A DNA stretch of 64,000 nucleotides. Source: Squalus acanthias (taxonomy: Eukaryota). The stretch lies in contig CM059453.1 of assembly GCA_030390025.1 (NCBI GenBank), positions 7,068,001 to 7,132,000 on the forward strand, written 5' to 3'. The notes beneath the pieces are model-generated. The model did no database searches, was not told where the DNA came from, and saw only the letters and a program-made list of their open reading frames with translations. This document shows positions 17,601 through 59,284 of the stretch, piece by piece. Every line of letters begins with the position of its first letter. Position 1 is the first letter of the stretch. A program made the position numbers and the translations under genes.

Positions 17601-17643
17601 ATGAGGAGTATTAGATTTATCTCCATTCTGATATTTAGCGAAG
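17601..17643 (+). CDS. Copy 1 leader exon (signal peptide [14 protein letters not shown])
   Basis: cgcctccag|tgATG...GAA G|gtaaaa. Phase 1, completing the signal peptide with VVHS in the V exon. Confidence 0.85.
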
Positions 17644-18038
17644 GTAAAATATTCATTTTTAATAATTAATATCAGAAGCGATTTCCATTTTTTGGCGAAT
17701 TAAACAATTATTTGTTTGTAGAGATAGTACATGTTTAGTTGGTAATTTACAAATTCCCGATTTGCACATTTAATGTATATTTCATTCGAAACGTTATCTT
17801 GTATTTTATAAGATTGATTTAACATTTACTCTATGATTTATCGACTTTCAATGGAATAACTAATGGAATCTGAAGTGTTTTAAACAAACTTTCTCGAGTT
17901 TTAATGGATGTACTAATGAATATGTTAGTGCGTGTTTAAAGGTTAAATTAATGGTATTTAACTTGACGGTCAGGGTATGTTTTGATTGCGATATTATTGC
18001 GGATTTCAACGGGTGTTTCATTTCTGTTTTTTCACCAA

Positions 18039-18419
18039 TTGTCCATAGTTCACGATGGTCTGTGAAGGTGCCGTGGAATGCGTCGGCGGTGAACGGGTCA
18101 TGTGCAGAGATCCCGTGTACATTTGATTATCCGGCCAATGGCCGCAGTCCACGGGGTATGTGGTTAAAGGGGGTTACTGATCATGGAACCTCAGGGTTCT
18201 TGATTATCTGTGATTCCCAGAATTCAGACAAAGTGCCCTTGAACTATAGAGGGCGAGCTCAGTTCACCGGCGAATTTGAACAGAAACAATGTTCCTTAAG
18301 GTTAAAGGACATCAGGAAGATCGATGAAGGTGTTTATTATTTCAAACTGAAGATCATCACCGCCCAGAATACTACAGAAGAATATTCTACCGAACCTCCG
18401 GTCACTCTTTCTATTTTAT
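18039..18419 (+). CDS. Copy 1 V-set Ig exon (Siglec-type), acceptor mutated
   Basis: WSVKVP...[13 protein letters not shown]...W...YRGRAQF...CSLRL...DEGVYYFK. It has the B-E intrasheet Cys pair, no F-strand Cys, an extra inter-domain Cys, length 381 nt and donor gtaagt. Confidence 0.9.
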
Positions 18420-18684
18420 GTAAGTTTTTTGATTTGTTCCTTTTGTAGTTTATATTCCATCTCCCCAGTGCCATTTAATTTTAGCCTAAAATGGACAGTA
18501 ATCGTGTTACTCTTGGCCCATGTCACAGGCTGCAGCGGCAGGACTCTTCCATTGTGTAATACACAGTTGTGTGTTATGTTTTGACTTGAACAGAAATAGG
18601 GCGCTGCCCTTCTTAGTAACTTACAAAATCTCCTTCTGTTGTTCAGTCAGTAAGGGCAACGCTGGATGACATTGCCATCGCCGT

Positions 18685-19375
18685 GTCCCCCAACCATCAA
18701 CATCCTGGGGGTCACCATTGACCAGAAACATAATTGGGCCAGCCATATAAATACTGTGGCGACAAGAGCAGGTCAGAGGTTAGGTATTCTGCGGCGAGTG
18801 TCTCAACTCCAGACTCCCCAAATCATTTCTACCATCAACAAGGCACAAGTAAGGAGTGTGATGGAATATTCTCCAATTGCCTGGATGTGTTCAGCTCCAA
18901 CAATACTAAAGAAGCTCGACACCATCCAACACAAAGCAACCCGCTGTCTTGGTACCCCATGCACCAACTTAAACATTCACTCCCTGCACCACCGGCGCAC
19001 CGTGTCTGCAGTGTGCTCCATCTACAAGATGCACTGTAGCAACTCGCGAAGGCTTCTTCGGCAGCACCTGCGAAACCCGCGACCTCTTCCACCTCGAAGG
19101 ACAAGGGCAGCAGGCGCATGGTATCACCACGACCTCCACGTACCCCTCCAAGTCACACACCATCCTGACTTGGAAATATATACACCGAACTTTCATCGTC
19201 GCTTGGTCAAAATCCTGGAACTCCCCCCCAAACAGCACTGTGCGAGTACCTTCAGCACACGGACTGCAGCGGTTCAAGAAGGTGGCTCACCACCACCTTC
19301 TCAAGGGCAATTAGGGATGGGCAATAAATGCTGGCCTTGTCAGCGACGCTGACATTCCATGAATTAGTAAAAGTA
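18685..19375 (+). mobile_element. Non-CR1 LINE (L2/Crack-like) 3' fragment in the V-Ig2 intron
   Basis: INILGVTIDQK.NW.SHI...KAQVRSVMEYSP.AW RT C-terminus and tail ...attccatgaat...aaaa. The same insertion is at 54730 in copy 3. Confidence 0.85.
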
Positions 19376-55415: not shown

Positions 55416-55645
55416 AAAAATCCAATCCCTCAAGTTTCTGGAAAAATAAATCAAGGTTTGTACTTCTAATGGACAGGTCAGAGGACATGTTCAATATTTA
55501 GGAGGGATTGCTCCAATAAGATAATTTACAGGCCCCCATATCATAGGGTCATGTTTCAAAGTCTTTGAGCTAAATCAACTTGCACACCATTGGCCATTTT
55601 TACATTAAAATGTACGGTAACGCGAATGTCTTTTTCTCCTTACAG

Positions 55646-55957
55646 ATAAACCACGGATATCAGTCTCGGGGGAATTCATTGCAGGAAAGCCAGCACACCT
55701 GACCTGCTCAGTCACCCACAGTTGCCCGTCCGCCAACCTTGAATTGATGTGGACCCATGACAATGTTGTACCTCCATTTCTGCCAGAGATTAAAACTTCA
55801 AAAGAACATGATAACACTTTCCAGGATTCCCAGAATGTTTCATCCACTTTCAGCTTCAGCCCATCACTGAACCATCATGGGAAGAAGTTGGGATGTAAAC
55901 TTATTTTCGACGGTGTCATAGCTGCTGATGAAGAAACTCTTACACTGGATGTTAAAA
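55646..55957 (+). CDS. Copy 3 Ig2 exon (open)
   Basis: tacag|ATAAACCA...[11 protein letters not shown]...LGCKL...A|gtaagt; 312 nt. Confidence 0.9.
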
Positions 55958-56264
55958 GTAAGTGCCTGCTCTACGCTTCATTCAACCAACTTATTGATGA
56001 ACCGGTTCAATAGATGTATTTTTGCTGAATGTAATGATAGCGCGCCTGGATATTCAACTAATCGAAGTGACTATCCACTATTTCTTGTAAGTAACATTAT
56101 TTGACATTTGCCCCAGAACATGGAGTAATATTGGTCGTTCCAAGAGTATGGTTTATCTGAAATGTTATTGCTAAGACTCCCAATGTCTAATCTCATTTCA
56201 GCCACAGAGTAACTGAAACATACAGGCCAAGGAGAGTCCATTCATGGTCTGAGCTAACTTACAT

Positions 56265-58430
56265 ACATACGCATGATATACGGCACAGAAACAGGCCATT
56301 CGGCCCAACCAGTCCATGCCGGCGTTTATGCTCCACTACAGTCTCCTCCCGTCTTTCCAAATAGAAACATAGAAGATAGGAGCAGGAGTAGGACATTCGG
56401 CCCCTCGAGCCTGCTCCGCCATTAAATGAGATCATGGCTGATCATCCAAACTCAGTACCCTGTACCTGCCTTCTCCCCATATCCCTTGATACCTTTAGCT
56501 TTAAGAAATATATCTAACTCATTCTTGAATATATTTAATGACTTGGCCTCAACTACCTTCTGTGGTAGTGAATTCCACATGTTCAACACTCTCTGGGTGA
56601 AGAAATTCTTCCTCATTTCTGTCCAAAATGGCTTACCCCTTATCCTTAGATTATGACCTCTGGTTCTGGACTCTCCGACCATCGGGAACATTCTTCCTGC
56701 ATCTAGTTTGTCCAGACCTGTCAGAATTTTATATGTTTCGATGAGATCCCCTCTCATTCTTCTATGCTCCAGCGAGTATAAGCCCAATCGACCCAATCTC
56801 TCCTCATATGTCATTCCTGCCATCCCAGGTATCAGCCTTGTGAATCTTCGCGGAACTCCCTCCATGGCAAGAACATCCTTCCTCAGATAAGGCGACCAAA
56901 ACTGCACACAATACTGAAGGTGTGGTCTCACCAAGGCCCTGTACAACTACAGCAGGACATCCCTGTTCCTATACTCAAACCCTTTCGCTATGAAGGCCAA
57001 CATACCATTTGCCTTCTTTACCGCCTGCTGCACTTGCATGCTTACCTTCAGCGACTGGTGCACAAGGACACCCAGGTCTCGTTGCACTTCCCCTTCTCCC
57101 AATTTATTGCCATTCAGATAATAGTCTGCCTTTCTGTTTTTGACACCAAAGTGGATAACCTTGCGTTTATCCACGTTATATTGCATCTGCCACGCTTCTG
57201 CCCACTCACCCAACCTGTCCAAATCATCCTGGAGTTTTTCGGTATCCTCCTCGCAGCACACACTCCAACCCAGCTTTGTGTCATCTGCAAACTTGGAGAT
57301 ATTACATTTAGTTCCCTTATCTAGATCATTAATGTATATTGTGAATAGCTGGGGTCCAAGTACCGATCCCTGTGGTACCGCGCTAGTTACTGCTTGCCAC
57401 CCGGAAAAAGACCCATTAATTCCTACTCTTTGCTTTCTGTCCGCCAACCAGTTCTCTATCCAAGTCAATGCCTAGCCCCCAATCCCATGTGCCTTAACTT
57501 TACATGCTAATCTCGAATGCGGGACCCTTATCGAAAGCCTTTTGAAAGTCCAAATACACCACATTTATATTTTTTTCCAGTTACATCCTCAAAAAATTCC
57601 AGTAGATTAGTCAAGCTCGATTTACCTTTTGTAAATCCATGTTGACTTTTGACCGATCCTGTCACTGTTTTTCAACTTCTCAGCTATTACATCCTTTATA
57701 ATGGACTCTAGCATTTTCCAACAATACCGATATCAGGTAATTCCCCGCTTTCTCTCTACCACCCTTTTTGAATAGTGGGGTAACATTAGCTACCCTCCAA
57801 TCCATGGGTACAGTTCCAGATTCCATCGAATGTTGGAAGATGATCAGCAATCTAAATCTAAATCCATCAGCGTAACCCCCTATTCCCTTCTCCCTCATAT
57901 GCTTGTCCAGCCTCCCCTTAAGTGCATGTATTCTATTCACTTCAGCCAATCCCTGTGGTAGCGAGTTCCACATTCTCACCACTCTCTGGTTAAATACGTT
58001 TCTTCTGAATTCCATGTTGGATATCTTGGCGACCACGTTATATTGATGGCCTCTAGTTATGCTCTTCCCCAAAAGTGGAAACCTTCTCTCTGTATCCACT
58101 CTATGATTGGCATTCATAATTTTAAAGACCTCTATTAGGTCACCCCTCAGCCTTCTTTTTTCACGAGAAAAGAGATCCAGCCTGTTCATCCTTTCCTGAT
58201 ATGTATACCCTCGCATTTCTGTCATCGTCCTTGTAAATCTTCTCTGCTCCACCTGCAGTGCCTCTATATCCTTTTTATAATATGGCGACCAGAATTGCAC
58301 GCAGTACTCTAATTGTGGTCTAACCAAGGTTCGATACAGATTGAGCATAACTTCCCTACTTTTCAATTCTATCCCTCTCGGAATAAACCCTAGTGCTTGG
58401 TTTGCTTTTTTTATGGTCTTGCAAACCGGT
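56265..58430 (-). mobile_element. CR1 fragment with a second, younger CR1 nested at about 56360-57848
   Basis: The orthologous CR1 of copies 1 and 2 is split. The inner element has VPQGSVLGP...FADDTKL. Confidence 0.88.
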
Positions 58431-59284
58431 GGCGCAATTTAGCTGGAGCGGTAGTCAGGATTCTACAATTGGCCTCAGCACCCCTGTGTAAGAGATGGGA
58501 AAGTCCACCGTACCTGTTCTGGGAGGAATGAACACTTGGTTGATGTACTGGAGGATTAGAAACTGACGCGGGAAAACATATAACTCTCCAAATCCTTGAA
58601 GATCAGAGGGAAAAGATTGCTTATTTTTGAAATAAGCTTAAAATCTAGTGCGTAAAAGTCATGAGCTGCATTTTCAATTTATAGTTTACAAAAAAACCAA
58701 CATATCTTACTTTAATATTCTTATTTAGTTGTCACATAAATTGTTTTATTTTGCTCATCCGCACTGATAACCACATTTAGAACGAATGGCATCATCCCTT
58801 CCAGATGGCCCACAAAAAACAGCCATCAATTCCTTTATAGCGGCAGTGGAAGGGAGCACTTTATTATTATACTGCACGGCCCGGGGAACCATATCAGGCA
58901 ACTTAATATTGGTGCGTGGCTGACAATAACTTGGGCAAACCGAACAGCTCCACACTGATTTCTGTACAATGTAAGTACTGAGTCAACCTATCAAATGTAT
59001 ATTGGGACATCAACCCGTCTTACAGTGATTAGGAATCGATGTTTCTCCCCCAGTGTTCACACAACTGTCTCAAAACCCGTCAGTAATTTTGCCAGAAATG
59101 TCAGTAAAAGAAGGGTTCTTGAACCAAATTCATTGAGTAAAAGACACTGTTAAAAACCAACTGGAGACCCCAAGACACAACTCCAGGTAGAATGCATCTC
59201 TGATTGACTAAAACCAACTGAATGAATATGTGGGATGTGCAAAGGCAACATTTCTGTATGGTGGACTGATCCCAGTGGCCCTGA

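Follow-up and report, generated by a model that had tools for sequence, protein, structure and literature searches.

A tandem cluster of Siglec-related genes in Squalus acanthias: predicted paired receptors of sharks and rays

Introduction

In primates the pairs SIGLEC11/SIGLEC16 and SIGLEC5/SIGLEC14 each unite an inhibitory receptor with a member bearing a charged transmembrane (TM) segment, and their 5′ portions (upstream sequence, V-set and first C2 exons) have been homogenised (PMC5701461 and PMC6288428, in excerpt). In SIGLEC11/16 the converted 5′ region amounts to 3 kb (PMC5701461, in excerpt). The activating copies of both pairs are often null, and the essential Arg has been lost in some lineages, according to excerpted accounts. 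The same features recur in the family described here, which came to attention through three tandem units in a 64,000-nucleotide stretch of the Squalus acanthias genome (contig CM059453.1, here C30, positions 7068001–7132000; the window). These units, each with an Arg in its TM exon, are probably activating-type members of a tandem Siglec-related family of sharks and rays; copies 1 and 3 are pseudogenes, and copy 2 could encode no more than a predicted form with three immunoglobulin (Ig) domains. The family would comprise paired on/off leukocyte receptors whose sensing ends are kept alike by gene conversion.

Several other described receptors resemble these genes in part. The NxxR receptors that use FcR-gamma (LILRA2, PIR-A, NKp46, GPVI, OSCAR, Fc-alpha-R and Xenopus XFL) likewise have an Arg in the N-terminal part of the TM segment, a short tail, relatives with an immunoreceptor tyrosine-based inhibitory motif (ITIM), and a history of birth and death (PMC2413239, in excerpt). 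Sialoadhesin (Siglec-1) has the same V-set fold and cysteine pattern, and is the best match in both sequence and fold. MAG (Siglec-4) shares these and also the membrane-proximal C..CxC domain. The definitions of the essential Arg and of paired receptors used here follow an excerpt of PMC13358205.

A review of bony fishes states, in its excerpt, that fish genomes are without inhibitory CD33-related Siglecs and regularly have only four Siglecs (PMC7226832). The excerpted part of another paper mentions Siglecs once, among gnathostome gene families (PMC8455134), and a table in the excerpt of a third places the family in its tetrapod group (PMC13262535). No cartilaginous-fish Siglec cluster is described in the titles and abstract openings of the literature searched, a search to which subscription journals were outside scope. 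The proteins themselves are already in databases under automatic names. RefSeq entries called “MAG-like”, “SIGLEC5/8/13/14-like” and “Schwann cell myelin protein-like” belong to this same family, with 24 further proteins from 12 species matching a Mustelus member at E below 1e-47. The orthologies that these shark and ray names imply are unsupported by the tree given below. What appears to be new, judged from sequence, is an elasmobranch-specific clade of Siglec-related genes that probably encode paired receptors.

A cluster of about 90 genes

An earlier note on this DNA had proposed three units, each with leader, V-set and C2 exons, and this was borne out by exon mapping and by alignment. The units are spaced 16.2 and 19.9 kb apart (Table 1) and are mutually 84–92% identical over kilobases in a self-comparison of the window. 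Leader, V, Ig2 and Ig3 exons are found in all three. As the note had it, Ig4 and TM exons lie inside the window for copies 1 and 2 and tail exons for copy 2, and copy 3 continues beyond a retrotransposon, with its Ig4, TM and short tail exons 3.8–6.0 kb past the window’s end. The nearest proteins are shark proteins, in line with the note's guess at a shark genome.

The 3.7 Gb assembly was searched with the V exon. Of 235 candidates 150 were scored, 98 of them on C30, where by eye about 91 are distinct: 82 at 6.0–8.03 Mb and 9 at 0.19–0.31 Mb. The cluster is therefore some 30 times larger than the window shows, with about 90 genes. A span of 1.74 Mb was annotated (C30 5.96–7.26 and 7.66–8.10 Mb, leaving out 7.26–7.66 Mb), and 0.18–0.33 Mb was surveyed only. 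Most genes fall into two subfamilies, A (that of the window) and B. The 64 genes of A and B that were read include 13 intact ones, counting two that stop after the ITIM with the distal motif lost; 11 are without one usable C2 exon (missing, or deprived of a splice site), and 40 are broken. In A, 23 of 35 are broken outright and 3 are fully intact. A third type is represented by one five-Ig gene, in which no leader was located and all exons between V and tail, both included, are open. Because of the 13, 11 and 40 genes in these classes, birth and death is established as an outcome, and the lineage-specific tandem expansion that the note proposed stands.

Two predicted signalling ends

The TM segment encoded by each of the three copies has an Arg close to its outer face. 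This Arg-TM exon occurs in 12 copies, all on C30, and also in proteins of Mustelus, Cetorhinus and Scyliorhinus (P0004, P0017, P0015). The Arg persists in all 11 in-frame exons, which have Met where NxxR has Asn. In the next exon a stop precedes the donor by one base, in each of 11 copies, and many stops interrupt the former ITIM exon farther downstream. A stop this near the last junction should escape nonsense-mediated decay. We considered whether the stop ending the first tail exon of copy 2 is a private lesion and rejected this, the stop being common to the subfamily. The window copies cannot be read as ITIM receptors; copy 2 ends in a short tail.

The Arg-TM genes are interleaved with neutral-TM A genes that carry an exon with VLYAAV and EYAAI. 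In general the inhibitory members, among the neighbours and in other sharks, have an ITIM (VLYAAV or IVYATV) and a distal EYAAI, of which none occurs in the window copies. The first tail exon of the neutral-TM A genes contains stops in 11 of 11, and all 11 have an in-frame, phase-0 internal donor (TCG/GTGAGT) ahead of them, in a phase that fits the ITIM exon; the old donor is gone in 3 of the 11. These genes thus probably use a shortened tail exon and reach the ITIM exon through the internal donor, leaving a predicted inhibitory tail intact. The idea that all of them are truncated was rejected, since the internal donor avoids the tail stops. The ratio of nonsynonymous to synonymous substitution rates (dN/dS) for the neutral-TM exon is 0.25.

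Most of subfamily B is of the inhibitory type; a second type has little tail and a His in the TM segment. In two such genes (L114 and L116; C30 6045253–6045352 and 6065722–6065821) the His lies near the outer face and no ITIM exon was found; a Heptranchias protein (P0023) matches this type, possibly a second activating or a decoy form.

The genome has two zeta-family adaptor genes, and from the position of the Arg, FcR-gamma is the likeliest adaptor of the Arg-TM members. Three contig sets presumed to derive from RNA were aligned on the inhibitory-type paralogue upstream of the window; they matched mainly intronic repeats, with no exon joints among the matches listed.

Shared sensing ends

Compared exon by exon, V and Ig2 have nearest relatives of the opposite TM type at up to 96–99% identity; for Ig3 and Ig4 the grouping largely follows the TM type. 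Comparison in 600-base segments places the switch. Over roughly its first 3.6 kb, which run from the promoter to Ig2 with the introns, copy 2 shares 96–99% identity with an inhibitory-type gene that immediately precedes the window; 3′ of Ig2 the two are 76–87% identical or without a match, and there copy 2 resembles Arg-TM genes at 93–97%. The same switch of 5′ and 3′ identity is found in two other V lineages.

Topology tests agree with this pattern. Monophyly of the Arg-TM genes is rejected on V (21 genes; P value of the approximately unbiased test, p-AU, 6e-8; 4 changes) and on V plus Ig2 (19 genes, p-AU 1.5e-5), and is not rejected on Ig3 plus Ig4 (20 genes, p-AU 0.32, 2 changes). The copies have likely traded sensing ends with neighbouring inhibitory receptors; gene conversion and unequal crossing-over are not separable on these data. 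Near-identical predicted ligand-binding regions are joined to opposite predicted signalling ends, and the activating-type member has a charged TM segment and no ITIM, features that mark paired receptors.

Siglec features and the sialic-acid arginine

The kinship with Siglecs that the earlier note proposed is upheld by sequence and structure comparisons as well as by the tree. Cysteines C23 and C81 of the V domain (the B–E pair) are conserved and an F-strand Cys is absent; Pfam matches are V-set and Ig_CD22. Against solved structures the V domain of copy 2 matches sialoadhesin, Siglec-10, -5, -8, MAG, -7 and CD33 at the top, the best at E 7e-10, its Arg aligned with R97 of sialoadhesin. A grouping of the V domains outside the Siglecs, one of the note's refuting conditions, was not observed. 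A model of the domain (predicted local distance difference test score, pLDDT, 78) again has sialoadhesin as its best match (Foldseek E 2e-10; Z 17.4, root-mean-square deviation 2.0, 115 aligned), followed by PILR, VSIG4, MAG and Siglec-15. The inter-domain cysteines (GSC in V, THSCP in Ig2) are encoded in all three copies, the Ig2 of copy 2 being without an acceptor. The hallmarks that had been noted (B and E cysteines, no F-strand Cys, GSC, THSCP, and C..CxC in Ig4) were present wherever the exon exists.

The F-strand Arg, also claimed as a hallmark, is found in one of the three copies: it holds for copy 2, and copies 1 and 3 have Lys. In the cluster it occurs in 8 of 64 V exons, in six A genes without a usable Ig2 and a broken pair from B. 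The 13 intact genes all lack it and carry Lys, Ile or Ser at the site. Among proteins of other species compared by eye, 9 of 14 A-type and 0 of 11 B-type have it. We infer that the Arg was ancestral in A and was lost long ago in B. We class the intact genes of the cluster, along with copies 1 and 3, as Siglec-related by descent and not as sialic-acid lectins. Binding of sialic acid in the usual mode is predicted for the Arg-bearing V lineage, that of copy 2, only. B-type V exons average 3.2 Arg in a 14-residue G-strand stretch (n=20) against 0.5 in A (n=19); in these domains without the F-strand Arg the Arg-rich strand is a lead to another candidate anion-binding site.

Pairwise dN/dS in six B genes is 0.98 for V, 0.54 for Ig3 and 0.44 for Ig4; in A genes it is 1.26 for V (interval 0.99–1.81), 0.49 for Ig3 and 1.03 for Ig4. 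Since 1 falls inside the intervals, and some of the A genes compared are broken, these values do not show positive selection.

Loss of Ig2 in the lineage of copy 2

In all six A genes with an Arg-bearing V domain a usable Ig2 is missing, through loss of an acceptor, a stop, a frameshift or an inversion. The leader, V, Ig3, Ig4 and TM frames are spared and remain open. All Ig exons are phase 1-1, so that skipping Ig2 in copy 2 would keep the frame, and copy 2 could code at best as a predicted three-Ig form. In predicted proteins without Ig2 from two other sharks (P0010, P0018) Asp replaces, by eye, the partner Cys of the V domain, which makes three-domain designs plausible. The earlier note, which described a four-Ig family, mentioned neither the lesions nor the TM Arg; copies 1 and 3 are dead, and copy 2 has at best three domains.

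At a distance of 740 kb lies a twin of copy 2, with 99.7% identity along 14 kb and with different neighbours; recent duplication is a likelier origin for it than allelic duplication. The twin keeps the core C-strand Trp, which is Arg in copy 2, so copy 2 is likely the weaker of the pair. Loss of the V acceptor in copy 2 was considered and rejected, the acceptor being CCAG/TT. The Arg-bearing V lineage also has an extra C-strand Cys (34335–34337 in copy 2), two residues before the core Trp.

Phylogenetic placement

A midpoint-rooted tree of 55 rows was built under LG+G4 from 318 columns that cover V, C..CxC and the first C2 domain. Its group labels come from source names and motifs, with several rows unnamed, and it leaves out sialoadhesin and CD22 rows, which are without the third domain. 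The family forms a single clade with its relatives in other sharks and rays (100/99), within which there are species-specific subclades (100/99 and 100/97). MAG is joined by a different shark Siglec family (95/95), and the tetrapod CD33-related Siglecs join a teleost group (95/92). In topology tests on 27 rows neither a union of the family with MAG (p-AU 0.35) nor one with the CD33-related Siglecs (p-AU 0.058) was rejected. A V-only FastTree places another shark family beside the tetrapod CD33-related Siglecs (0.86), and the three-domain tree places it beside MAG; since the two trees disagree on that family, the deep branches are unstable. The family is thus a distinct shark-and-ray branch of the MAG/CD33 group, for which neither a MAG nor a CD33-related sister was recovered.

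The label “CD33-like” is an analogy. A tandem cluster with rapid gain and loss is a CD33-related trait that is seen here; a clade with the tetrapod genes was neither recovered nor rejected. As to synteny, matches to LSR- and ETF-family markers lie on other or small contigs, and the cluster is flanked by an array of G-protein-coupled receptor (GPCR) genes and a NACHT gene.

Weighing the explanations

True orthology with the tetrapod CD33-related cluster, the paired design being inherited from the jawed-vertebrate ancestor, is an unlikely origin of these genes. Both groups have the membrane-proximal C..CxC domain and a tail with ITIM and distal Tyr, and the forced union just mentioned was not rejected. 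However, the tetrapod group joins teleosts while the shark family stands alone, the C..CxC domain is found in MAG too, and the activating TM types differ. It seems still less likely that the family is an expanded MAG lineage of co-orthologues, as the automatic names suggest, many relatives being named “MAG-like”. The best solved relative of Ig4 is domain 5 of MAG, the union with MAG was tolerated, and two genome searches for a MAG orthologue, the first with a stricter filter, gave no clear one (best 40–42%), which is not proof of absence. Yet it is a different shark Siglec family that is sister to MAG, and six matches on contigs C17 and C3 outscore every C30 gene against the MAG V domain. A MAG orthologue would be single-copy, inside the MAG clade and of five Ig domains; the genes here are multi-copy, outside that clade and of four, which also disposes of one-to-one orthology without expansion.

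A further view, also unlikely, takes subfamily A for a dying branch whose copies are passengers of segmental duplications after loss of function, the 5′ sharing being due to neutral unequal crossing-over, and only the Arg-less B genes working. The tally of broken A genes, lesions common by descent, a dN/dS of about 1 in A, and a truncated TM-less A lineage lying head-to-head with B genes and copied many times all agree with it. It sits poorly with lesions confined to Ig2 in the Arg-bearing V genes, with an internal donor kept in 11 of 11 and an ITIM exon open in most, with the low dN/dS of the neutral-TM exon, and with the presence of both TM types in other sharks. It is very improbable that uncollapsed haplotypes in the assembly account for a large part of the cluster. 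Such an artefact would explain the twin of copy 2 and the blocks at 6.85–7.17 and 7.66–8.05 Mb, which share long segments at 95–98.5%; but gene order differs between these blocks, the 0.18–0.33 Mb group is 88–94% like the rest, relatives in other sharks are multi-copy as well, and the divergence of the window copies from each other is too great for alleles.

We prefer the reading of the genes as paired receptors, with the window, as far as can be judged from its exons, representing the decaying activating-type arm. Several observations weigh against it. Of the NxxR motif found in FcR-gamma partners (PMC2413239, in excerpt) the TM segment keeps the Arg and lacks the Asn, and primate activating Siglecs use DAP12 (PMC6288428, in excerpt). 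Ten Arg-TM genes have a V exon; just 2 of these are fully intact, each with Lys on the F strand. The A-gene dN/dS near 1 for V and Ig4 also fits decay, and with a twin so similar some counts may include allelic sequence. Copy 2 has lost its core Trp, and in the six Arg-bearing V genes the want of a usable Ig2 removes the inter-domain Cys partner. The window consists mostly of decayed copies, which limits its own weight.

On the paired-receptor reading, inhibitory members, whose neutral TM, ITIM and distal Tyr motif are seen in sequence, would recruit SHP phosphatases as other Siglecs do. Arg-TM members, with their short tail and decayed ITIM exon, would signal through an adaptor with an immunoreceptor tyrosine-based activation motif, most likely FcR-gamma. 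A microbe engaging the inhibitory receptor would then also trip the activating one, the segments from promoter to Ig2 being common to both. Unequal crossing-over and segmental duplication would add copies, most of which decay, as the outcome shows. A bolder form of this proposal, offered tentatively and rather less than probable, is that a third MAG/CD33 branch gave rise, in sharks and rays, to a paired Siglec system of independent origin from that of mammals. It would have about 90 genes, with activators coupled to FcR-gamma; conversion would exchange the sensing ends, splice-site turnover would have removed whole Ig domains and parts of the tail, and most receptors would have moved from sialic acid to another class of ligand.

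Comparison with described receptors

The shark family departs from the primate paired Siglecs in having some 90 genes, not two pairs, with several V lineages that each have both TM types. Its TM Arg is near the outer face, it forms a separate clade, and most members are without the essential Arg. Unlike the NxxR receptors (PMC2413239, in excerpt), its members have a Siglec-type ectodomain and no NxxR Asn, and their adaptor pairing is predicted. From MAG and sialoadhesin it differs in being multi-copy, fast-evolving, four-Ig and in a clade of its own; the sialoadhesins in the set are without C..CxC.

A large, ITIM-bearing, paired and fast-turnover Siglec cluster in cartilaginous fish would mean that the self-sensing arms race is as old as jawed vertebrates, or that it arose twice. 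The defined pairs would allow tests of whether gene conversion keeps activating Siglecs as counter-traps outside primates, of adaptor choice, and of the ligands of Arg-less Siglec folds.

Features of the window

Copy 1 is a pseudogene because its V acceptor is lost, Ig2 has a stop and the tail exons are gone. Copy 3 is another, having lost its start codon, its leader donor and, beyond the window, its TM donor, and having suffered a deletion in Ig3 and the insertion of a long terminal repeat (LTR) retrotransposon. The terminal repeats of this element are 99% alike over 201 bases and its frame is at least 1052 codons long (protease, reverse transcriptase, RNase H, integrase), which suggests a recent insertion.

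A leader-only relic had also been noted, with its ATG at 2057, and it is above chance: its local score against the three leaders is 40–44, and 0 of 500 shuffles scored as high (maximum 26–29). Its promoter side (1835–1982) is moreover about 70% identical to regions upstream of family leaders.

Table 1. Exons, relics and an inserted element in the window (window coordinates).
Feature	Position	Strand	Remarks
Upstream relic	1835–2098	+	promoter-side segment, then leader-like exon with ATG at 2057 and without donor; not followed by a V exon
Copy 1 leader	17601–17643	+	intact
Copy 1 V-set	18039–18419	+	open frame; acceptor AG to AA; F-strand Lys
Copy 1 Ig2 (C2a)	19619–19930	+	in-frame stop at 19906
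Copy 1 Ig3 (C2b)	21261–21518	+	intact
Copy 1 Ig4 (C..CxC)	25841–26128	+	intact; best solved relative MAG domain 5
Copy 1 TM	27106–27205	+	Arg-bearing; tail exons deleted downstream
Copy 2 leader	33782–33824	+	intact
Copy 2 V-set	34219–34599	+	splice sites intact; F-strand Arg 34524–34526; core C-strand Trp to Arg 34341–34343
Copy 2 Ig2	35405–35716	+	acceptor lost; stop at 35521; likely skipped in frame
Copy 2 Ig3	37415–37672	+	intact
Copy 2 Ig4	42013–42300	+	intact
Copy 2 TM	43280–43379	+	Arg 43309–43311 near outer face
Copy 2 short cytoplasmic exon	44178–44263	+	stop one base before donor
Copy 2 ITIM-exon relic	46174–46338	+	decayed; stops; behind the stop codon, in putative 3′ untranslated region
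Copy 3 leader relic	53656–53698	+	ATG to ATT; one base lost at donor
Copy 3 V-set	54085–54465	+	intact; F-strand Lys
Copy 3 Ig2	55646–55957	+	intact
Copy 3 Ig3	58805–58970	+	92-base deletion (frameshift)
LTR retrotransposon, young	60031–64000	-	in Ig3–Ig4 intron of copy 3; ends about 520 bases past the window

A decayed retrovirus-like relic occupies 13794–16300, with reverse transcriptase at 14318–14809 and an integrase with a C-terminal match of murine leukaemia virus type at 14731–15468. It lies within a stretch of about 7 kb that parts the copy 1 leader from the homologue of the copy 2 upstream region. A 50-base minisatellite at 31691–31931 and 51566–51806 lies about 1.9 kb upstream of the copy 2 and 3 leaders, and recurs at 7142–7430 in the displaced upstream region of copy 1.

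Surroundings of the cluster and other arrays

On one side the cluster is flanked by intronless rhodopsin-family GPCR genes (L147, L149; 5.96–5.99 Mb) and on the other by a NACHT-domain gene (L145; 8.09 Mb). The truncated A pseudogene mentioned above has lost the exons for Ig4, TM and the first part of the tail; together with the B genes that it faces head-to-head it has been copied many times, at C30 6.19–6.82 Mb, 7.2 Mb and 0.19–0.31 Mb.

Further arrays of Siglec-like V exons are found on C17 (52–64 Mb), C3542, C3426, C3486 and C3 (127 and 186–188 Mb). On C3542 some V exons lie in long open frames (1558 and 1083 codons) that resembled intronless Siglecs; these were rejected as CT simple repeats. 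Several sampled exons of these arrays retain the canonical YxFR Arg, and three near-identical C17 exons, the top scorers against MAG, have Tyr at that site.

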